A stretch of DNA of 64,000 nt from a virus, in the IMG/VR virus record IMGVR_UViG_3300048997_000130, positions 1 through 64,000 of that record. One strand, given 5' to 3'. The position numbers and the translations under genes are program-made. The notes under the pieces were generated by a model that saw nothing but the letters and a program-made list of their open reading frames with translations, ran no database searches and had not been told where the DNA came from. Positions 42,017 through 62,428 of the stretch are shown here, in pieces (the stretch's first letter is position 1; each line of letters opens with the position of its first letter).

Positions 42017-42922
42017 TCAGACTAATACATTCAATTCTACTTGAATATCTACAAAACCATTGGAAGCTGTTGGAGAACTAACTCGAACAGAGTCTTTATA
42101 TAGGCCGGGAGTAGAAGGAATGCCAGAAGGATTAATACTGAATACAGCATCACCAGACTCGCTAGAAACCAACGGGCCTCCATTAACTGGTGAAACGGTA
42201 AGCCAGGGGGATGTATTATGCACTTTAGAAGCCAGCCAATTTAAAATGGAATTGGCGGGTCCAGCATTTTGAATACTAACTGTTGCTGGACTAGAACCAG
42301 AAGAAGTAGACAAGAAGTAGACAAGATTCACAAGTGGAGGTGATATCGCTATTATAGGACGAGGGAGAACGTTAATAATGAAATCCAGAGAAATCTGCGT
42401 AGCAGGAATACGATTATCTTGCAAATGAACCGTTCCTAAATATGGAGAATCCGATTCAAATAACGAAGCAGTTAATAATGTGACGTTAAAATAATCAGAT
42501 TGATTTTTACCGAGTCCAGGAATGGAAACTGGACTGGAACGTAGCCAAGGTACGCTAGGTGTTGAAATCACAGTCAAAAATGAACCAAAAGCACCGGCAT
42601 TAAATATGCCAATATTAGCAACGGATTTATTGGAGTCGCCTTCAACAATAGTTATATTGTAAGCATTGATACTAGGATCAATCAAAGCTACCAAGGGAGA
42701 TAATTGCTGTTGAATCTCAGATAGAGATTCTGCCATGGACGTAATTATATCTCCCGGAATAGGAATGGCAGTTTGAATCAGAGGACCATAAGGAGTGTTG
42801 ATGTCAGTCAATTCATACAATTGACCACCACCTTGAATATTATTGGCACGAATGGCCCAACGCCATATTCCTCCAATAGAAGTCTTCTGGAAAATAAAAC
42901 CGCCACCTTGAACAATGTTCAT
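42017..42922 (-). CDS. Putative structural protein with Ig-like/BACON-like beta domains
   Basis: Two beta-rich repeats with W-L-x-(S/V)-S-P motif (PWLRSSP, PWLTVSP). Confidence 0.5.
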   Translation of the reverse strand: MNIVQGGGFIFQKTSIGGIWRWAIRANNIQGGGQLYELTDINTPYGPLIQTAIPIPGDIITSMAESLSEIQQQLSPLVALIDPSINAYNITIVEGDSNKSVANIGIFNAGAFGSFLTVISTPSVPWLRSSPVSIPGLGKNQSDYFNVTLLTASLFESDSPYLGTVHLQDNRIPATQISLDFIINVLPRPIIAISPPLVNLVYFLSTSSGSSPATVSIQNAGPANSILNWLASKVHNTSPWLTVSPVNGGPLVSSESGDAVFSINPSGIPSTPGLYKDSVRVSSPTASNGFVDIQVELNVLV

Positions 42923-42971
42923 ATATCAACCTGTTTGAAAAGAAGGCGATAGAATAAAAGAGATATTAACC

Positions 42972-43430
42972 ATGAGGAAGGAATTGGAATTATTCTGGGA
43001 ATGTCCACTATGTAAAACGATAAATATCGATAATTCATCCATATGTAGTTTATGCAGTCGCCGGAAAGATGGAAGAATAGAACCATTTCATAAGCAACTT
43101 CCTCCTGAAATCAGAAAATCTAAAAAAGACCGACCAAGTTTAATGGTGGAAGAAGTTATAATACATGATTCTCTATATAAGAAAATCCGTAGACCTCAAA
43201 AAACTGATCCGGATATGTTTCAAAATAATATAAAAAAGGCTGATAAATCGGAACAGTTGATACAACAGATAAACGATAGAATAAAAGAAGCGCGTCGTAG
43301 TTCATCAGAACTCCAACTCAAATCTGGCGCATCAAATAAACCTGCTATTACTGTCCCTAATACGTGGTGGGGATGGATAATATTAATACTAATATCCATC
43401 ATAATTGTTGCCAGCACTATAATTAAATGA
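42972..43430 (+). CDS. Zn-finger membrane-anchored protein
   Basis: WECPLCKTINIDNSSICSLC (RanBP2-like) and hydrophobic C-terminal helix. Confidence 0.6.
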   Translation: MRKELELFWECPLCKTINIDNSSICSLCSRRKDGRIEPFHKQLPPEIRKSKKDRPSLMVEEVIIHDSLYKKIRRPQKTDPDMFQNNIKKADKSEQLIQQINDRIKEARRSSSELQLKSGASNKPAITVPNTWWGWIILILISIIIVASTIIK

Positions 43431-43431
43431 A

Positions 43432-45234
43432 TCAATTCCGCATCAACACGAATTTGGTCTTGGATTTACCATATACCTTCAAATAATCATATTTGGAAAC
43501 ATAATCTGATTCTTTCATATTATTTTTGATTGCATGATTATATAATGTCTTTTTATGGATTACAAAACCTTCTGAATTAATATAATGATAATCCGGTTTG
43601 GTTTGATGGAGTTCTTCCCAATTCGCAGCTTTGTAAATTATTCCTAAATGACCAAATGTGGAATCGGAAAAGCTGACAAGGGTAGAAAGTCGTGAGAATT
43701 GCTTAAAAATGGAAGCCGAACAGCGTGAAATGAACCAAGAAGCAAAATTTTTCTTTTGATATTGAGGATGAATGCAGAATCTATCAAGTTCCAAAACTTG
43801 AGAAGGGCTAAGATTCATGGAAGTTGCAACTTCCATGCGGACGGGAGTTGCAAATTTGCAGATGGCAATCAATTTATCATCAAGGAAGGCTCCGAAGATT
43901 TGTTTAGCAGAACGCCCAAATCCTGCATAATGAAATGATTGTAAAAATTCTTCGGATTCCGAATAATAAGAATTCGGCAATTTATCTTGAACGTTCAACG
44001 GCCGAATGGAAACATTAGTAAACGAAAAATCTTGAGAAGCTATTGGCGAATCTTCACCAAATAATTCACGAATCAGCTTTTGTTTAATAATGCCCGGATT
44101 CAAAAATTCTCTCTCCCACAGATATATTAATTTATATTCGGGGAAATATTCATCAACATAAGTGAATTTAGATGCGTCCTGTGATTGTCGCGTGGAGTGC
44201 CAATATTCGCCTTGACATTCAATGAGTAAATTATGTGAAGGAATGAATAAATCGAATTCCCAATAACCAATCACATGATGTCTAACGTAGGGAATGTCCA
44301 AAGCATTCAATAATGTTTGGACAACCCTCTCCAGAATACTATCTTTCCCATTAATTAATACTGAAGCACGAGCTCGAGCCATTTTCTCGCGGAATGCTGG
44401 ATCTTTCCATAATTTATCCATCTTCTCACGAAATATAGGATCTTGCCATTGCTTCTTAGCATTCTCTGCCTTCAATTGTAGAAGAGCTGGATCAATGGCT
44501 GCAGCTTTTTGTTTTTCAATATAAGCAGGATCTTTCCAAAGTTCTCGAATCCGATTGGTCATGACTTCCCGATATTCAGGAATGGTCCACAACAACTTCT
44601 GGGACTCGATAATCAACTCACGATATTCAGGATCGTTCCAACGTTCAATAACTAATCGAGATTGGAGCTGCCTGTGTTCAAGGCTGGAATGCAACGAGTC
44701 TTGCTTAGCTCGGTATTCAGGATCTTTCCAAACATCGCTGATGATTTGCGCATGATCAGAAACTTTCTTTGGATCAGACCAAATCTTTTCATAATGAGCT
44801 TTACGTTCTGGGTCCTCCCATAGTCCTTTAACTAATTCCGAGGATTGTTGTCTCTTTTCGGGATCATTCCAAATCGCAGTCGAAATTTGTTTTTGTTTTT
44901 CTGCAAACTCCGGGTCGGACCATAAATCTTTAGAAATTTGTGATTGGCGTTCGCGTTTTTCATCTGACCAAGATTCAACCATCCCAACTCGATGTTTCTC
45001 TTTATATTCAGGGTCTTGATGTTTCTCTTTCATGCCGCACGATAAACAACGATAAACTCCAACACGGCTGATTGTCCGAAGCACAGAAACAATTTTTAGT
45101 GTTTTCTTATCACCACAACCACAAATGACGCCGATATCAGATTGACGAGTGATATGGGATAATTGAGAAGCAAATTTTAGATCAATGATTTGTTCTGGAA
45201 TTCCATATTTCTTAATCTTATCTAAAATACTCAT
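43432..45234 (-). CDS. Multidomain protein: Zn motif, Trp-repeat helix array, Vsr/DUF559-like nuclease, Mom-like GNAT domain
   Basis: CGC...CLSCG; about 11 W-x-D-P-E-Y/F-R repeats; EFDLFIPSHNLLIECQGEYWH; FHYAG, LELDRFC, LVSFSD...GIIYKAANW. Confidence 0.75.
   Translation of the reverse strand: MSILDKIKKYGIPEQIIDLKFASQLSHITRQSDIGVICGCGDKKTLKIVSVLRTISRVGVYRCLSCGMKEKHQDPEYKEKHRVGMVESWSDEKRERQSQISKDLWSDPEFAEKQKQISTAIWNDPEKRQQSSELVKGLWEDPERKAHYEKIWSDPKKVSDHAQIISDVWKDPEYRAKQDSLHSSLEHRQLQSRLVIERWNDPEYRELIIESQKLLWTIPEYREVMTNRIRELWKDPAYIEKQKAAAIDPALLQLKAENAKKQWQDPIFREKMDKLWKDPAFREKMARARASVLINGKDSILERVVQTLLNALDIPYVRHHVIGYWEFDLFIPSHNLLIECQGEYWHSTRQSQDASKFTYVDEYFPEYKLIYLWEREFLNPGIIKQKLIRELFGEDSPIASQDFSFTNVSIRPLNVQDKLPNSYYSESEEFLQSFHYAGFGRSAKQIFGAFLDDKLIAICKFATPVRMEVATSMNLSPSQVLELDRFCIHPQYQKKNFASWFISRCSASIFKQFSRLSTLVSFSDSTFGHLGIIYKAANWEELHQTKPDYHYINSEGFVIHKKTLYNHAIKNNMKESDYVSKYDYLKVYGKSKTKFVLMRN
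44390..44970 (-). repeat. Protein-level tandem W-x-D-P-E-Y-R repeats
   Basis: WSDEKR, WSDPEF, WNDPEK, WEDPER, WSDPKK, WKDPEY, WNDPEY, WTIPEY, WKDPAY, WQDPIF, WKDPAF. Confidence 0.8.
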
Positions 45235-45275
45235 ATAATATAATAAAACAACCAACAACTCATTTCCAAGAATGA

Positions 45276-46037
45276 TTAGTCAGTCGGAAGAATCTGCGCA
45301 ATACCTCTGTCGACAAATTGTGGTAAGGAAACCTCGTGAAGAATATTAAAATGTTTATCGCTAATGGCGAAAAACACAGTCCAATATTTCCCATAGCGCG
45401 AATCGCGAGTAGTTTTTTCAACCTCTTGTTTTATTTTTTCAGGAGTAATATCAAGTCCTCGCCTACGACTTAATTGTAAATTGACTTCTCGTTCTCGAGC
45501 TTCCTCTGCGATCAAATCTCGAATCTTATTAAGAGCACGAAAAAATCGATGACGAACGCGACCTTGTGTCAATTTAAGTCGTTTAGCAATTTCAGATTGA
45601 CAAGTCGTTTCATACATTAACCATAAAATTTCTCGGTCTTGGTCTGAGAATTTAGGACCAAGTTCTAATTCAAATTCATCAAATTCAAGTTCAGGAATGG
45701 TGCGTAAAAATTGAATACGTTTAATACCTCGATGCAATCGATATGAGACAGCAGCTTGCGTAATACCGAAAATTCTTGCAATTTGCTCTTGCTTCATCTT
45801 ATCTCTATAATATAGAACGATAAGATCAGTCTCGCGTTCAGGAATCCGATTCAAATGATGTTCGATAACACCAAAATCCGGTTGATATCCCTCCGCTATC
45901 AAATCTTCTTCGGGAGCAGGAGCAAGTTGTCTTTCTATCAAATCTTCGATAGAAATTTCAGACTCGGCGCCTAATCTATCATTATTACTAAATCGTGTGG
46001 AAATATTCGAAGGATCTTGAATTAAAACGTGCGACAT
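45276..46037 (-). CDS. Sigma-70 region-4-like protein with two HTH modules
   Basis: LNRIPERETDLIVLYY...QEQIARIFGITQAAVSYRLHRG and QDREILWLMY...QSEIAKRLKLTQGRVRHRFFRA. Confidence 0.75.
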   Translation of the reverse strand: MSHVLIQDPSNISTRFSNNDRLGAESEISIEDLIERQLAPAPEEDLIAEGYQPDFGVIEHHLNRIPERETDLIVLYYRDKMKQEQIARIFGITQAAVSYRLHRGIKRIQFLRTIPELEFDEFELELGPKFSDQDREILWLMYETTCQSEIAKRLKLTQGRVRHRFFRALNKIRDLIAEEAREREVNLQLSRRRGLDITPEKIKQEVEKTTRDSRYGKYWTVFFAISDKHFNILHEVSLPQFVDRGIAQILPTD

Positions 46038-55749: not shown

Positions 55750-58700
55750 CTAACTGCCCGCTCCAACAGCTTGAAGTGCTTCTACGAGAGTCTCGGGAGC
55801 ACGCAAACTCTCTAAAACAAATTCGGAAATTTGTTTTCCTAAATCTGAATTCCGAACGTTATCGCGTTCATTGGCAGCAGCATATAAAAATGCGTTCGGA
55901 TCACCGAATAGAAATACCTTTTTCTTGGCACGAGTAATAGCTGTATAAATAAGATTCCGATATAACATCATCCCGTATTGCATAGTCATTGGCATAAGGA
56001 TATAATCGAACTCTCTACCTTGGCAATTCCATCCGCAAAATCCATTTTGAATAAAACGATGACCATCCGGGACTTCAACACACATAGATGGTCCATCAAA
56101 TATCTCAATACGCGATATAACACTATGATGGAATTTAATCCGCTCCCGTAAAGCTCGTGATTCGTTGTTTTCTATCTGAATCCGAGATAATAGGGATTCC
56201 AATTGATGGCGAGACATATAACCACGCGTCAGAACATTTTTGTCCGCAAAAGTAAAAAATTTAGGACCACCGTTAATATCTCTAATTGATAACGCTTCAG
56301 CTTTAAGTATTGGAACTTGATAATGGCATTCATTTCCATATAGAGATTTCGCTCGTAGTTGTTTCTCATCAGTTATGAAACCGATAACATCAGCAAATCG
56401 ACCAACATTCCGACCATATATATAAATAATACGATAAGTTTTCACACACCCATCACTCAGTGTTTGACGACGCTCGCCATATCCAGATATGATGCCAAAA
56501 CGAAGTAACATCACTTTCACGTCTTTATATAATGATTCATAGCAGGTTAGTAACTCAATATGATCAACAGTCCCTAGATCTGGATTCATATTGACAGTGC
56601 CATCTTCAAACAAACCGCGCAAGAAGGCTGCTTGCACGGTCAGTGAAGAACGTAAAACAGATAATGGAACAGATTTATTTTCCGGTCCGATTCCTCCAAT
56701 ATCTAGAAGCCAGCGAGATAAAAATGTGGAATGGACTTCAATACCAGCGGTTCCGTTATGATCAATATGTTTCGGATGGCATTTAAAAAGTAACTTACAT
56801 AATTCATCGAAACGTATGATTACATCATTGGATGATGTAATCATACGAAATCCACCATCAAACACAGTTCCATCTGCGACCATTATGCCAAGAAATTCCG
56901 CCATATGAACATCCAATTCCGTAGGCACCGGATATTGGACTTCATTATAATGACCGCTGATAGGAGCAGGAAGAAACCTATTCGATTGCTCCCCCCATTG
57001 AACGCCAAGACGCAAAGCCAGTAAATTTCCTTCCACAAGCTCTGAAGCCGGACGACGAATATATCCATATTTAGAATCCCAAGTATCCATTCCATGATCA
57101 GGAGTGGTTTCAAGTACGTAACCATCTGAAGTGGTTATACGAAGCATACGACTGGAAGGATTATTGACTTTGGAATGATATTCAGCGCCGCCAGAAGGAG
57201 TAGCAATAGAACCATCAGATGGTATATCAGAAATCCGAATTAAACCTTCTGGAGTCTCAACTAGTGTATCCGGAGACACACATTTATGCGCTGTACATGC
57301 ATATGCAACATTCAACATTGAACGACATTCTTCAATCTTGAATGTGAATGTCTTATCTATATATTCAGGAACAGTAGATTCATGATTGAACCATTCAAAT
57401 ATTTTGACTTCAACCACGTCATCTTTAGCCGATATACGTTGGACTTTTCCAACGTCTCCATTGAAAATCATTCTATCATAGTCATTCTTCACGACCATGA
57501 TTCGATCCCCTTCATATAAATCACAAACGCCATGTTTTATTTTATAAGCATTGCCAGCGATATACATAGGATTTAATATCTCTCGCAATTTCTTATTTAG
57601 ATTATTAACTCCAAGTTCGCCATCATATTTAGGAGCAATAACTTGAAATAATGCGTCACGTGTCATCATTCTTTCAGTGAGGGCACATATTTCGTCAGCT
57701 ACTTGAGGCTGTGGGAAACGGAAAAATACGAATTGAGAATCCTTTCGAAAATCAGTATCTATTGCATCCCCAGCAAGTATCTGATGTGCCACTGTTATAA
57801 TATCAGACCTATCAGTCTGTCGATAAATCCGAGTCAATGATACATGCGGAACATCATCACAACGCATCAGATTATTGAGAACATAACCAGCGCCAACTGA
57901 TGGTAATTGTGCAGAGTCCCCAACACATATCAAAATAGTAGTAGATGGAAGCGCCGAAATTAAATGATAAAATGTTGCTCCATCAACCATTGAAGTTTCA
58001 TCAACAATGACAGCATCAACATGGAATTTATTCGATGAATGAAATTCCCATCCGCCATCTCGTTTATATCCAAGAGCCCGATGAATTGTAGAAGCCGGTT
58101 TCCCCGTCACTTGTGATAATCGTTTAGAAGCAATACCAGTTGGTGATAATAATACATAATGTAGATGATTCTCTTCGAATAAATCAACAAATGCAGAAAT
58201 TAATGTGGTCTTCCCGGTTCCAGGATAACCTGATATAACACACACTTTGGAATGTTCAAGCAGCATTAATGCTTGACGTTGATGCTCCGAAAGCGTTATA
58301 TTACGACGTTTTTCATATTTATCCAAAAATCCAGATAGATCACCCAAATCTTTTGGTCCATTGGCAAGTAAGTCCACTAAATATTTAGCAGATTCAGATT
58401 CATATTGCCAATTTTGGATTGAATATATTCGGGAATTATCAACGACTATATCATCATCTTCTTTTAATTGATCAAGAGCTGTGTAGAACGAAATATCTGA
58501 TAAATATTCACCATGAGAAAATGGATCGAGTCCAATTTTTTTGAACAGCCTTTGAACATACTCACGAATCTGATCCGCGGATACATACATATGTCCTTCA
58601 GATGATGATAATTCATGGATGATATATAAAATCATTGCATTAACACGGCGTTGATCGTCTCGACCGACTCCCAATTGCCGAGCAACGTTATCGGACGTTT

Positions 58701-59277
58701 GAAATCCAACGCCAGGACATTCATACAGCCAGTATGGATTTTCTTTGACTAATCGAACTGATTCAATTCCGAATCTAGTATATACGGATCGAATCTGAGA
58801 AGCAGTTAAACCTAAATTACTAAGGAATATTGCGGCCGTTCTCTGTTCAGAAGCTACTCGCCACTCATCAATTATAGATTCAATCTGTTTCTGGCTAAGA
58901 AAATCACAATCGGCAAGCTTTTCGGGCTCCGTATCCAACAATGTTATAAGATCATCACCATAAACTGCATATAATTTTCCAGCTGTTACTGGACCAATGG
59001 ACGGAACGTTATTCACTAAATATGTGATTATTCCAGATCTACTTTTTTCTGGTAATACTTCACAAGTAGTCATTCGAAATTCACGTCCATACTGGGGATG
59101 ATCGCCCCAGATGCCACGTGCATGAATTTTAATACCGACAGCTACAGGTTGACCAAGGAATGATCCCTTAACTGTAACTACAGACGCTGGTTTCTCAGGT
59201 TGAACCTTAAGAATATAATATCCAGTGCCCCGGTTGGAATACATAATTCCAACAATTTTTCCGATGAGTTCTTCCAC
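55750..59277 (-). CDS. recD2: RecD2-like SF1B helicase, intein-containing (about 756 aa spliced)
   Basis: N-terminal OB/HhH, GYPGTGKTT, VIVDETSM, GDSAQLPSVG, AYACTAHK-CQG, YTAITRAK. Confidence 0.92.
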   Translation of the reverse strand: MEELIGKIVGIMYSNRGTGYYILKVQPEKPASVVTVKGSFLGQPVAVGIKIHARGIWGDHPQYGREFRMTTCEVLPEKSRSGIITYLVNNVPSIGPVTAGKLYAVYGDDLITLLDTEPEKLADCDFLSQKQIESIIDEWRVASEQRTAAIFLSNLGLTASQIRSVYTRFGIESVRLVKENPYWLYECPGVGFQTSDNVARQLGVGRDDQRRVNAMILYIIHELSSSEGHMYVSADQIREYVQRLFKKIGLDPFSHGEYLSDISFYTALDQLKEDDDIVVDNSRIYSIQNWQYESESAKYLVDLLANGPKDLGDLSGFLDKYEKRRNITLSEHQRQALMLLEHSKVCVISGYPGTGKTTLISAFVDLFEENHLHYVLLSPTGIASKRLSQVTGKPASTIHRALGYKRDGGWEFHSSNKFHVDAVIVDETSMVDGATFYHLISALPSTTILICVGDSAQLPSVGAGYVLNNLMRCDDVPHVSLTRIYRQTDRSDIITVAHQILAGDAIDTDFRKDSQFVFFRFPQPQVADEICALTERMMTRDALFQVIAPKYDGELGVNNLNKKLREILNPMYIAGNAYKIKHGVCDLYEGDRIMVVKNDYDRMIFNGDVGKVQRISAKDDVVEVKIFEWFNHESTVPEYIDKTFTFKIEECRSMLNVAYACTAHKCVSPDTLVETPEGLIRISDIPSDGSIATPSGGAEYHSKVNNPSSRMLRITTSDGYVLETTPDHGMDTWDSKYGYIRRPASELVEGNLLALRLGVQWGEQSNRFLPAPISGHYNEVQYPVPTELDVHMAEFLGIMVADGTVFDGGFRMITSSNDVIIRFDELCKLLFKCHPKHIDHNGTAGIEVHSTFLSRWLLDIGGIGPENKSVPLSVLRSSLTVQAAFLRGLFEDGTVNMNPDLGTVDHIELLTCYESLYKDVKVMLLRFGIISGYGERRQTLSDGCVKTYRIIYIYGRNVGRFADVIGFITDEKQLRAKSLYGNECHYQVPILKAEALSIRDINGGPKFFTFADKNVLTRGYMSRHQLESLLSRIQIENNESRALRERIKFHHSVISRIEIFDGPSMCVEVPDGHRFIQNGFCGWNCQGREFDYILMPMTMQYGMMLYRNLIYTAITRAKKKVFLFGDPNAFLYAAANERDNVRNSDLGKQISEFVLESLRAPETLVEALQAVGAGS
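56026..57282 (-). mobile_element. Helicase intein (419 aa), LAGLIDADG
   Basis: CVSPDTLV start after TAHK; FLGIMVADG, FLRGLFEDG; MCVEVPDGHRFIQNGFCGWN then Cys+1. Confidence 0.9.
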
Positions 59278-59295: not shown

Positions 59296-60108
59296 TTAGG
59301 ATTGGATAGTGATTAAGTTATATAAATCAGTCTCACTAAGCACAGGAACGTTATATTTCCTGGCATTCTTCATTTTACTAGAATTTGTATCTGGATTATT
59401 GGTAACTAAGTAGGATGTGGTCTTAGACACAGAACTTTTAGGGAATCCCCCGACATCCATAATATCTCTTTCAACTGCTTTCCTGGGTCGAGTAAGTTCT
59501 CCAGTTATGCAAAGCGTCTTTCCTGATAGTATACCACCAACAGCTTGACGTACGTTTATTACTGACACTAAATCAATAAATAATTCACGTCTAAATAATA
59601 AACCTTCTTGAATTTGACGAGCTGTCTTCTCTCCAATATTCGGAACTGCTCTTAAAGCATCATAATCAATATTCAAGATTTTGTCAACAGTATTAAAACC
59701 AGCTTGAATTAAATCAGTAGCCGTACTTATTCCAAAATTTGGAATATTTAATGATGCAAGAATTAATTCTAAAGACAAATCTTTATTACTGTGTAATACT
59801 TCATAACATTTAGCAGCCATTTTCGGACCAGAGCAATATTGTTCTAAATCAGCAACAGTTAATCGATATAAATCAGCAACAGATTTAACGATTGAATTGG
59901 ATGAAATAATAGCATCTATAGTAGCATCTCCCCAATGCAGAAGTCCAAGATTTCGAATCCAAACTTTTAGAGAACCCGATAATTTCGATGGACAGACGTT
60001 ATTCTTACAATATAAAAAATCACCTTGAATTATAGTTACACTAGAACAAATCGGACAGAATTCGGGAATTTTGAATAATATGGGATCCACTATAATATAA
60101 ACATACAA
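59296..60108 (-). CDS. ligA: NAD-dependent DNA ligase, C-terminal part (Zn finger, HhH, BRCT)
   Basis: CPICSS...YCKNNVCP, HhH IPNFG and VPNIG, BRCT LSGKTLCITGEL...SVSKTTSYLV...KMKNARKYNV; start may be GTG 60090. Confidence 0.9.
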   Translation of the reverse strand: MYVYIIVDPILFKIPEFCPICSSVTIIQGDFLYCKNNVCPSKLSGSLKVWIRNLGLLHWGDATIDAIISSNSIVKSVADLYRLTVADLEQYCSGPKMAAKCYEVLHSNKDLSLELILASLNIPNFGISTATDLIQAGFNTVDKILNIDYDALRAVPNIGEKTARQIQEGLLFRRELFIDLVSVINVRQAVGGILSGKTLCITGELTRPRKAVERDIMDVGGFPKSSVSKTTSYLVTNNPDTNSSKMKNARKYNVPVLSETDLYNLITIQS

Positions 60109-60682: not shown

Positions 60683-60842
60683 GTTATTATTAAAATAAAT
60701 TAAAAATCCAGGTTCAGTAAATTTAATATAAATTCATTTTATTCAAATAAGATAATAATTATGTTAACGCCGTTACCTGAATAAATTAAATTTAATAGTT
60801 AGTTCCAAATTACGAGCCATTAATATAATAATTTCGAAAATC

Positions 60843-61322
60843 CCAGCAATTGATGCTGACTCATTTTATGATGCATATCATTATATCGGAAAATGCAAAG
60901 CTAAAATAAACTATGGTGTATATTTTGAAGAACAATTAATTGCATGCGCCACATTCAAACCTCCAACTCGCCAATCCAAACATCCTTGGGAATTAGTCCG
61001 AATGACTTCCCATCCACAATTCCGCGTTCATGGCATTTGGTCCAAAATCTTGAAACAATTTATTCAAGATTTTGGACCAAAGTCAATTGTGAGTTTTTCA
61101 GATAATAGGTTATTCTCTGGGAAAGTTTACGAGAAAATTGGATTCCAGTTTGATGGTGACGTCCGACCTGATTATTATTGGGTGAAAGGTCAAAACCGAT
61201 ACCATAAATCGGTATTGCGTAAAAAACCGGGAGAAGTTGGTACTGAAACTATACTCCGTCAAATTGATGGTTTCCGGAAAATTTGGGACTTAGGAAAGAA
61301 ACGTTGGGTGTTAACATTATGA
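60843..61322 (+). CDS. Stand-alone Mom/Hef-like GNAT-type domain, start uncertain
   Basis: Frame open from at least 60843 (PAIDADSFYDAYHYIG...YGVYFEEQLIACATF...WELVRM...IVSFSDNR...VYEKIGF...PDYYW); no ATG/GTG/TTG in frame upstream of 61002. Confidence 0.65.
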   Translation, partial: PAIDADSFYDAYHYIGKCKAKINYGVYFEEQLIACATFKPPTRQSKHPWELVRMTSHPQFRVHGIWSKILKQFIQDFGPKSIVSFSDNRLFSGKVYEKIGFQFDGDVRPDYYWVKGQNRYHKSVLRKKPGEVGTETILRQIDGFRKIWDLGKKRWVLTL

Positions 61323-62428
61323 ATGATAACATAGATTTAGATGAATTAAAATCAGAACTTAAACAAGCGCGTCTAGCTTATTTTAATTTAAATCCTGTCA
61401 TATCTGATGCGGAATATGATGCCAAAAAAGAATTATTAGCTAAATACGAACCTGACGCAGCAGAAATCAAAGCGGTAGGAGCGGATCCGCCTAAGATATC
61501 AGTGTGGGAAAAAGTCCAACATAAAATACCGATGGGGTCTCTAGATAAGGTTAATACTGAATCGGAATTCCTAGAGTGGGCTAATAAACTAGGATCTGAT
61601 ACATCATTTTTATTTATTCATAAAATTGATGGATCGAGTATGGAAGTTGTCTATGAACATGGTCAGTTAATTCGATGCGTCACCAGAGGGAACGGGATAA
61701 TTGGGGAAGATATAACCAATAATGGAATACAGATCCCTAATATTCCTAAGTTCATTCCGATACAACATGAAGAAATAATCATACGTGGCGAAGTTGTCAT
61801 GTTGAAAGATGTCTTCCATAATAAATATGCTCAAGTATACGCCAATCCAAGGAACACAGCCAACGGAAAACTTCGAGAACGTAAGTCTGGAGGTTTAAAT
61901 TGTGCCGATCTCATATTTTTAGCGTTTACTTTGGAATCCAGTTCTGCACCAAAGCTGGAATATCTAAGAATGAAAGCTCTTCAAAAAATGGGATTTTCTG
62001 TTCCAGAATTTGAAGTAGGATCTGCAGCACAAGCAGTAAGCTGGCAACAATCAATAATAGGAAACAGGAATTCGATTCCATACGAAATCGATGGAATCGT
62101 AGTTCGAGCCAATAATATTTCTCTCCAAGAAGAGCTTGGAGAAATAAATATGAGACCTAGAGCTCAAATCGCTTATAAATTCGAATCTGCTACCGGGATT
62201 TCCCAAGTCATAGATATAAAATGGCAAGTAGGATTGACTGGTCGAATTACAGCAGTAGCATCTGTGGAACCAGTTAATATTGGAGGCGTAGTAATCACTT
62301 CCATATCACTTCATAATTTAAAATTATTCCAAGATTTAAAATTATTTAAAGGATGTAGAATATTGATCTCACGTCGTAATGACGTTATTCCGTATTGTGA
62401 AAAAAATTTAGATGCAGCGTCAGATTAG
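61319..62428 (+). CDS. ligA: NAD-dependent DNA ligase, N-terminal part (Ia, adenylation, OB)
   Basis: ISDAEYD, HKIPMGSLDK, HKIDG, RGEV, NPRNTANG, YEIDGIV, IAYKF, QVGLTG, RRNDVIP; start reassigned to ATG 61319. Confidence 0.93.
   Translation: MNDNIDLDELKSELKQARLAYFNLNPVISDAEYDAKKELLAKYEPDAAEIKAVGADPPKISVWEKVQHKIPMGSLDKVNTESEFLEWANKLGSDTSFLFIHKIDGSSMEVVYEHGQLIRCVTRGNGIIGEDITNNGIQIPNIPKFIPIQHEEIIIRGEVVMLKDVFHNKYAQVYANPRNTANGKLRERKSGGLNCADLIFLAFTLESSSAPKLEYLRMKALQKMGFSVPEFEVGSAAQAVSWQQSIIGNRNSIPYEIDGIVVRANNISLQEELGEINMRPRAQIAYKFESATGISQVIDIKWQVGLTGRITAVASVEPVNIGGVVITSISLHNLKLFQDLKLFKGCRILISRRNDVIPYCEKNLDAASD

Follow-up and report, generated by a model that had tools for sequence, protein, structure and literature searches.

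A putatively mobile gene of a very large phage joins a Vsr-like homing-type nuclease to a Mom-like domain

The window analyzed in this work is a stretch of 64,000 nucleotides at the start of a 196,676-base record of the IMG/VR database (IMGVR_UViG_3300048997_000130). Since these 196,676 bases were rated 44% complete by CheckV, the source is a very large uncultured phage with a genome of roughly 450 kb. On the minus strand, at positions 43435-45234, the window carries a gene whose product combines a zinc ribbon, a long repeat arm, a Vsr-like nuclease and a domain resembling the Mom protein of phage Mu, which is referred to below as the nuclease-Mom gene. Our favored reading, in which we place about as much belief as doubt, is that of an intact homing-endonuclease gene from the Hef/EDxHD lineage, mobile and free-standing, with the already published architecture of a restriction endonuclease (REase) joined to Mom. 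The domains were identified by both sequence and fold, the active sites are conserved, the gene is distributed sporadically and incongruently among related phages, and its repeat arm is of the homing type. Cleavage near its genomic slot, DNA binding by the arm and any modification of DNA by the Mom-like domain are what we infer from these observations.

Domain organization of the gene

The gene is a single intact open reading frame (ORF) of 600 amino acids (aa) with an ATG at 45234 and a stop codon at 43432-43434. Because the alignments of its homologues begin at residue 1-3, this ATG is the likely start; the alternative TTG at 45258 was disfavored by the same alignments. The features of the gene are as follows.

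43435..45234, minus strand: the whole nuclease-Mom gene, 600 aa, with zinc ribbon, repeat arm, Vsr-like nuclease and Mom-like domain
45025..45138, minus strand: zinc ribbon, aa 33-70 (C38, C40, C63, C66), identified by cysteine conservation, with two strands and a helix in the model
44350..45024, minus strand: helical arm, aa 71-295, with 11 W-x-D-P-E-(Y/F)-R units at aa 105-279, a predicted DNA-binding module
44035..44349, minus strand: Vsr-like (EDxHD) nuclease, aa 296-400, with the active site E302, D328, E339, Q341, H346 and D353
43435..44034, minus strand: Mom-like GNAT domain, aa 401-600, with the pocket residues H435, Y436, R485, S499, D524 and Y534, and with T526 at the position of Mom R151

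Conservation was counted over 93 homologues whose identity to the window protein is 33-59%. A preliminary description of this DNA, made from its letters alone, had noted a zinc motif, and the four cysteines of the motif CxC...CxxC (C38, C40, C63, C66) are indeed each present in at least 90% of the homologues. It had also counted about 11 helical W-x-D-P-E-Y-R repeats, a figure that proved accurate, with 11 units starting at aa 105, 122, 139, 152, 169, 199, 216, 233, 246, 263 and 276. Ten of these read W-x-D/I-P and one A-I-D-P, and the spacing is 13 or 17 residues except for a single gap of 30. In the AlphaFold2 model, whose mean pLDDT is 92, aa 64-294 form a continuous run of helices of 11-16 residues, each started by a D-P cap. 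No tandem repeat was found at the DNA level under the arm, which indicates that the repeat units are old.

The domains differ in how strongly they are constrained. Mean pairwise identity among the homologues was 52% for the Mom-like domain, the most conserved part of the protein, 46% for the nuclease and 28% for the arm with the zinc ribbon, the arm being the part that diverges fastest. This contrast, read from aligned sequences, would fit a fixed catalytic cassette that is combined with swappable DNA-binding parts.

The relatives of the arm were sought by searching aa 1-295 with phmmer against 1.84 billion representative proteins, which gave 1523 matches at E <= 0.001. Many of the matched proteins are 250-450 aa long, with GIY-YIG-type motifs in the N-terminal part and W-x-D-P-E-(Y/F)-R repeats. 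Among ten sampled matches, eight had GIY-YIG or HNH nuclease domains according to Pfam: GIY-YIG appeared in six (SegE-type also in two), two of them above the Pfam cut-off, HNH appeared weakly in two, and NUMOD3 or helix-turn-helix (HTH) motifs lay beside the repeats in some. The only match in a cultured phage was a "putative GIY-YIG type nuclease" of the Burkholderia jumbo phage FLC6. The ESM Atlas hits, which serve as leads only, agree with the link to homing endonucleases. Judged by these sequence relationships, the W-x-D-P arm is a homing-endonuclease-type module common to GIY-YIG and HNH homing endonucleases. Whole-model searches of the PDB were uninformative on structural relatives of the arm, since their listings were filled by GNAT matches. 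Weak Pfam matches of the arm to GerD, STI1-DP and nitrile hydratase arise from the D-P repeat and were set aside as motif resemblance without a claim of homology, and NCBIfam matches (lantibiotic, GerD) were rejected as chance matches to the repeats only.

The Vsr-like core that the preliminary description had recognized was recovered by three methods, each of which matched it to the homing endonuclease I-Bth0305I (PDB 3r3p). The phmmer alignment covered aa 301-387 (E 1.4e-5, 25-26% identity), Foldseek gave a TM score of 0.79 with an rmsd of 2.3 and 26% identity, and VIA-align placed 93 of 98 residues with a Z score of 13.6 and an rmsd of 2.2. Residues E302, D328, E339, Q341, H346 and D353 align with E170, D196, E206, N208, H213 and D222 of I-Bth0305I, whose active-site residues were assigned by Taylor et al. 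(2011), H213 and D222 being those that were mutated to inactivate the enzyme. The EDxHD active-site positions are kept in 79-93 of the 93 homologues, with Q or N at position 341; D328, H346 and K356 are present in all 93, and E339 and D353 in 92. PADLOC reported a generic "homing endonuclease" model only, on the nuclease domain (E 7.9e-9). With its nuclease fold, its composite E-D-x-H-D site and a DNA-binding region on the N-terminal side, the protein fits the pattern of the EDxHD or Vsr-like homing endonucleases.

Distribution among related phages

The mobility of the gene was assessed by comparing 12 related loci, including the window, anchored on the sigma-70 region-4-type (sigma-r4) gene that precedes it; the relatives are labelled L003, L005 and so on. 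The two flanks of the nuclease-Mom gene are as follows.

45276..46037, minus strand: upstream flank, the sigma-r4 gene (Pfam Sigma70_r4), whose stop codon is one edge of the variable slot
42972..43430, plus strand: downstream flank, a small convergent ORF whose product has a zinc ribbon and, at its C-terminus, a membrane helix; it resides in the gap and does not belong to the mobile unit

The nuclease-Mom gene directly follows the sigma-r4 gene in six of the 12 loci (the window, L003, L005, L006, L014 and L017), where its products are 38-58% identical, and is absent from that place in the other six (L010, L012, L013, L015, L018 and L019). The gene-less slots of L012, L015, L018 and L019 have gaps of 36-830 bp, with only 36 bp between the genes in L018, and in L015 a 126-aa ORF occupies the position of the nuclease-Mom gene. 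The slot holds other cargo in L010 (a 500-aa protein of no known type and a weak methyltransferase-like ORF) and in L013 (a nucleoside hydrolase). The sigma-r4 stop codon marks the end of DNA homology among the relatives. Weak homologues of the convergent ORF at 42972-43430 lie in the same place and orientation in L015, L012 and L010, all of which are without nuclease-Mom in the slot, so the variable unit is the nuclease-Mom gene alone.

The stretch 42922-45276, from the sigma-r4 gene to the first structural gene, which is BACON-like, was observed to be a variable cargo slot of this phage clade (window, L003, L005, L010, L013 and L015). The cargo seen among the relatives comprises the nuclease-Mom gene, a GDSL lipase, a glucosaminidase-like gene, a nucleoside hydrolase, a methyltransferase-like ORF and small ORFs.

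A second insertion was found in L010, where an intact paralogue with the same domain architecture, 573 aa long, is inserted between the metallopeptidase and DnaX genes. These two genes are adjacent in the window, L003, L015 and L006, and are 25-350 bp apart in the other loci that hold both. The history of the gene also departs from that of its surroundings. The tree of six concatenated flanking genes joined the window with L010 (100/99) and then with L006 (97/95), whereas the tree of the nuclease-Mom proteins joined the window with L003 and L005 (99/98). In approximately unbiased (AU) tests, the gene data rejected the group of window and L006 (p 0.034) and the flank data rejected the group of window and L003 (p 0.046), while the flank data did not reject the group of window, L003 and L005 (p 0.15). 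We regard this conflict as moderate evidence, because the identity matrix was already known when the groups for the AU tests were chosen. The Rfam scan around the nuclease-Mom gene returned no family, group I introns included, above threshold, and since no Rfam intron marks the surroundings, the gene is read as free-standing.

Taken by its distribution, the gene behaves as a mobile element: it is sporadically present at a fixed slot, it has a paralogue in a second slot, and its tree conflicts with that of the flanking genes. A homing element was one of the roles that had been suggested for it at the outset, and the presence or absence of the gene in the slot, the inserted paralogue, the tree conflict and an arm common to homing endonucleases now give that suggestion comparative support.

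The same comparison bears on whether the gene could instead be a vertically inherited core gene that does housekeeping work in replication or repair, for example as a Vsr-type mismatch nickase. Five relatives carry it in the same position and orientation, between the replication and transcription genes and the structural block, and it is highly conserved; a conserved core gene had in fact been considered on the strength of three syntenic relatives. That idea was dropped after six relatives without the gene in the slot were found, among them the nearest relatives of the window by flanking genes. The conflict between the gene tree and the flanking-gene tree speaks against it as well, and the nuclease resembles I-Bth0305I more closely than it does the Vsr repair enzymes, none of which appeared among the matches listed. 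We consider vertical inheritance as a core gene very improbable.

The Mom-like domain

The C-terminal domain is related to Mom in both sequence and fold. With the Pfam family PF25680 (Mom) it scored 73.8 bits over aa 426-574, where the cut-off is 27.1 (E 1.9e-20), and it matched PHROG 1384, "Mom-like DNA modification protein", with an E value of 3.9e-24. The preliminary description had proposed a check of this domain for a GNAT fold by Foldseek; the fold was found, with Mu Mom (8bv8) as the top structural match (E 3e-10), and VIA-align gave Mom a Z score of 16.7, compared with 14.3 for the next GNAT. The VIA-align alignment with 8bv8 extends to residue 600. In the model, helices 561-570 and 575-581 fall in the stretch aligned to the HTH-like insertion of Mom and may be its counterpart. 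As in Mom, the glycine-rich pyrophosphate motif of GNAT proteins is absent from the domain when its sequence is read directly.

The function of Mom itself has recently been clarified. It moves glycine from Gly-tRNA(Gly) to the N6 of adenine in double-stranded DNA (dsDNA), after which the adduct rearranges, and residues H58, Y59, R111, S124, D149, R151, Y159 and W181 are important for it, together with the HTH-like insertion (Silva et al., 2026). Mom binds dsDNA through this insertion and forms dimers, and its R151A mutant is dead (Silva et al., 2026). The older proposal of an acetyl-CoA and iron chemistry for Mom has been superseded by Gly-tRNA(Gly) (Silva et al., 2026). The use of acetyl-CoA binding to decide whether the domain is a Mom, as proposed at first, is consequently out of date, the donor being Gly-tRNA(Gly).

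The motif order that had been likened to that of Mom (HY, ELxRF, SFSD, IYxAxNW) is real and maps onto functional residues of the enzyme. All four domain assignments of the preliminary description were thereby confirmed. The phmmer alignment with 8bv8 places H435, Y436, R485, S499, D524 and Y534 at the positions of H58, Y59, R111, S124, D149 and Y159. These pocket residues are strongly conserved among the homologues, with H435 and R485 in 93 of 93, Y436 in 92, S499 in 88, and D524 and Y534 in 91. The aromatic residue F557 lies at or beside the position of W181, and an aromatic residue is found there in 90 of 93. The match to Mom thus stands for six pocket residues; it fails at the essential R151, whose place is taken by the conserved T526, a substitution that had been overlooked. 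A homodimer prediction for aa 295-600 scored 0.00, a value that counts neither for nor against dimerization. From sequence conservation, we read the pocket as being under selection for some ligand-dependent function, while the reaction of Mom itself cannot be assumed.

Several points weigh against our favored reading or parts of it. Threonine occupies the position of R151 in 88 of 93 homologues and lysine in one, and because this arginine is essential in Mom, the domain may not modify DNA as Mom does. Cleavage and modification in the nuclease-Mom family are both predictions. Sporadic presence in such a changeable slot is also compatible with an accessory gene of the ordinary kind. The AU tests gave borderline p-values, for groups picked once the identity matrix was known. 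The nuclease-Mom protein is as conserved as its essential neighbors (42-58% identity, compared with 38-54% for DnaX and FEN), which is unusual for a purely selfish gene. A target site was not found, the 3' end of the sigma-r4 gene being the same in carriers and non-carriers; a comparison of the sigma-r4 proteins of the two groups gave only a single column that tells them apart, and no polymorphism that would be a candidate for a target or for immunity.

A family of short-form relatives helps in weighing the threonine. At full length these proteins have 256-318 aa and consist of PF18741 (Vsr-like nuclease) and PF25680 (Mom); both active sites are kept, and the equivalent of R151 is invariant. 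Because no other DNA-binding domain is present in them, their Mom-like part must supply DNA recognition. It is conceivable, although in our judgment rather unlikely, that the long form is a homing endonuclease whose Mom-like domain is non-catalytic and serves only DNA binding, base flipping or dimerization. The loss of the essential arginine in 88 of 93 homologues would be explained in this way, the short forms manage without another DNA-binding domain, and Mom itself both binds dsDNA through its HTH-like insertion and dimerizes. However, a scaffold should not need the other six pocket residues, which are kept in 88-93 of 93 homologues and include S499, the equivalent of the catalytic S124, and the invariance of the R151 equivalent in the short-form relatives also argues against a silent domain.

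The role of the Mom-like half in hundreds of homing-type nucleases of phages is a question that the Gly-tRNA(Gly) chemistry of Mom has sharpened. The long-form clade offers a clean test case, with conserved active sites, a systematic change of R151 to threonine and short forms that keep the arginine for comparison. If the Mom-like half modifies DNA, this would be a selfish nuclease that writes a covalent mark on DNA; if it does not, a DNA-modifying enzyme would have been recycled as a DNA-recognition module.

Proposed mode of action

Under our favored reading, the zinc ribbon and the 11-repeat arm would extend the protein along a long DNA segment, as the recurrence of the arm in GIY-YIG and HNH homing endonucleases suggests. 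The Vsr-like domain, whose catalytic residues are intact, would then cut the DNA. The Mom-like domain with its HTH-like insertion might engage an adenine beside the cut and would probably still transfer an acyl or aminoacyl group to it, with a chemistry altered by the threonine at the R151 position; for this step as a whole, the chances for and against seem roughly equal. The sum of these steps would be an enzyme that cuts and marks, whose gene would spread by homing among related phages into intergenic slots beside conserved genes.

A more far-reaching suggestion, which we regard as unlikely, is that the Hef-type nuclease-Mom proteins are in general bifunctional cut-and-mark enzymes that use a charged tRNA to place an adduct on an adenine within or next to the homing site. 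The donor may be a charged tRNA or, given the threonine at the R151 position, another acyl donor. If the suggestion were true, a selfish gene would carry its own tRNA-dependent immunity mark.

Relation to known systems

Proteins of this kind form a large family. PHROGs 559 and 3339, labelled "HNH endonuclease" and "homing endonuclease", extend over aa 283-598 and so take in the nuclease and Mom domains together. With tblastn, the pair of nuclease and GNAT was found in 187 phage records, with 7-11 matching places per genome in Campylobacter phages, where they are annotated as "Hef-like homing endonuclease". At least 303 metagenomic homologues were found, mostly full-length or nearly so. The contigs of the homologues reach 430 kb, many are at least 180 kb long, and some carry two or more paralogues. 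The gene by itself is one further member of this very large, computationally described family. The metagenomic work in which the EDxHD family was discovered reportedly also described "fractured" genes. Hef-type enzymes belong to the EDxHD family, whose nucleases were reportedly discovered in metagenomic analyses of ORFs associated with introns and inteins (Taylor et al., 2011).

The passages on Mom in Iyer et al. (2021; Viruses 13:63, PMC7824862) describe fusions of Mom and REase in group 2 jumbo phages, so the nuclease-Mom architecture is not new. The fusions described there resemble the present protein in having a Mom-family GNAT and a DNase of the REase fold in one polypeptide of very large phages. 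The same passages propose that momylation would shield the DNA of the phage while the nuclease is directed against host DNA or that of superinfecting phages. Protection of the gene's own allele and an analogue of restriction-modification (R-M), both suggested for this gene in the preliminary description, had accordingly been put forward already for the Mom-REase fusions in those passages. They differ from the present analysis in containing no experiment, no W-x-D-P arm, no homing-type mobility and no change of R151 to threonine, and in assuming an acyl-CoA donor, which has been superseded by Gly-tRNA(Gly). A literature search joining Mom with Vsr/GNAT, Hef or homing endonuclease returned nothing relevant.

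An R-M analogue in a single chain, acting for the benefit of the phage, would mark the adenines of the phage genome through its Mom domain and destroy unmarked DNA through its nuclease. A comparable economy exists in the type IIG/IIL single-chain R-M enzymes such as MmeI, in which one polypeptide cuts and marks through a shared recognition module; these differ in using an S-adenosylmethionine-dependent methyltransferase and a short recognition site, and their modifying domain is not homologous to the Mom-like domain. The R-M analogue is the published reading of the architecture, as far as the Mom passages of Iyer et al. (2021) go. The strong constraint on both active sites, the conservation of the protein at the level of the adjoining replication genes and the presence of other conflict-type cargo in the slot of relatives, such as the methyltransferase-like gene of L010, are also in its favor. 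Nevertheless, several paralogues with different DNA-binding arms are present in related genomes, and the Campylobacter phages have 7-11 matching places per record, none of which genome-wide protection would need. The long homing-type arm points to a single long target and not to a short motif that occurs often. The gene is missing from half of the close relatives, and R151 is replaced by threonine. On balance, we consider the R-M analogue unlikely.

Our favored reading of a mobile homing-endonuclease gene can also be set against individual proteins. The "Hef-like homing endonuclease" AFR52349.1 of Campylobacter phage CP30A likewise joins a Vsr-like nuclease to a GNAT-like part (matched at aa 293-588, E 8e-18), and Hef-like genes are, like the present one, free-standing and intergenic, and frequently multi-copy. 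The CP30A protein differs in having another N-terminal DNA-binding part and a more ordinary GNAT glycine motif, and it falls below the Pfam Mom cut-off. I-Bth0305I, the prototype EDxHD homing endonuclease, shares the nuclease fold, the active-site residues and an N-terminal DNA-binding region, but it is encoded in an intron, relies on NUMOD2/HTH motifs and terminates with the nuclease, without a Mom domain. Mu Mom has in common with the C-terminal domain the GNAT fold, the HTH-like insertion, the six pocket residues, the aromatic residue at W181 and the lack of a glycine-rich motif; it is a stand-alone dimer of ~230 aa, whereas here the domain forms the C-terminal third of a 600-aa nuclease, with ~15% identity to Mom and threonine in place of R151. 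Free-standing homing endonucleases of the GIY-YIG (SegE-like) and HNH types, exemplified by the FLC6 protein, share the W-x-D-P-E-(Y/F)-R helical arm, but carry it C-terminal to a different nuclease domain and have no Mom domain.

Three points are specific to the present case: the long-form clade has a conserved threonine at the R151 position where the short forms have arginine; the W-x-D-P arm is linked directly, by its sequence matches, to GIY-YIG and HNH homing endonucleases; and the genome context includes a PurA/PurZ-like gene. None of the three alters the class of the protein.

A decayed second element and the surroundings of the gene

A remnant of a short-form relative was found elsewhere in the window.

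60771..61322, plus strand: decayed short-form Vsr-Mom gene of which only the Mom half is left, a 183-codon open frame (Pfam Mom, 32.3 bits)

The remnant is truncated at its 5' end: it lacks the nuclease part, its HY motif is not preceded by a canonical start codon, and it aligns only to aa 95-275 of P0260, a short-form relative of 277 aa. The short-form relatives occur in several copies per megaphage contig, and many of them were also called as truncated ORFs. The decay of the element at 60771-61322 would fit the life cycle of a selfish nuclease gene.

The remnant lies directly 5' of the N-terminal half of a split NAD-dependent DNA ligase. The ligase was observed as two divergent genes, of which one encodes the HhH and BRCT domains (59296-60108, minus strand) and the other the adenylation and OB domains (61319-62428, plus strand); the two are separated by an acidic ORF of 183 aa and by the Vsr-Mom remnant.

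The nuclease-Mom gene runs in the same direction as its neighbors. On its 5' side are genes for a DnaX-like clamp loader, a NusG-like KOW protein, a 5'-3' exonuclease and the sigma-r4 protein, and on its 3' side is a BACON-like gene of 301 aa followed by a long structural block. Promoter and terminator scans around the gene gave signals no higher than those of shuffled controls. The sigma-r4 protein (45276-46037), which consists of sigma-70 region 4 only, has the top conservation in the neighborhood (56-72% identity), and its C-terminal ~30 aa, adjoining the variable slot, are nearly invariant across the 12 relatives.

Beyond the window, at record positions 76045-77190 on the plus strand (locus L008), lies a short adenylosuccinate-synthetase-like gene of the PurA/PurZ type. 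The best solved relatives of its product are the short PurA of Pyrococcus and the PurZ enzymes of phages (6fko/6fm0, 7odx), which hints at, and is consistent with, a 2-aminoadenine (Z) genome. With such an enzyme, 2-aminoadenine may take the place of adenine in the phage DNA. In that event, and if the protein were a cut-and-mark enzyme of the kind suggested above, the Mom-like domain would act on a different base or would distinguish foreign, adenine-containing DNA from the phage's own. The 196,676-base record also contains six tRNA genes (Ile-TAT, Leu-TAA, Tyr, Lys, Gln and Asp), every one outside the window; a tRNA-Gly was not found among the tRNA genes of this portion of the genome.

Finally, a RecD2-type helicase of 1175 aa is encoded at 55750-59277 on the minus strand, with the domains AAA_30, HHH_RecD2, SH3_13 and UvrD_C_2. 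It is interrupted at about aa 881-966 by a LAGLIDADG domain, apparently an intein.

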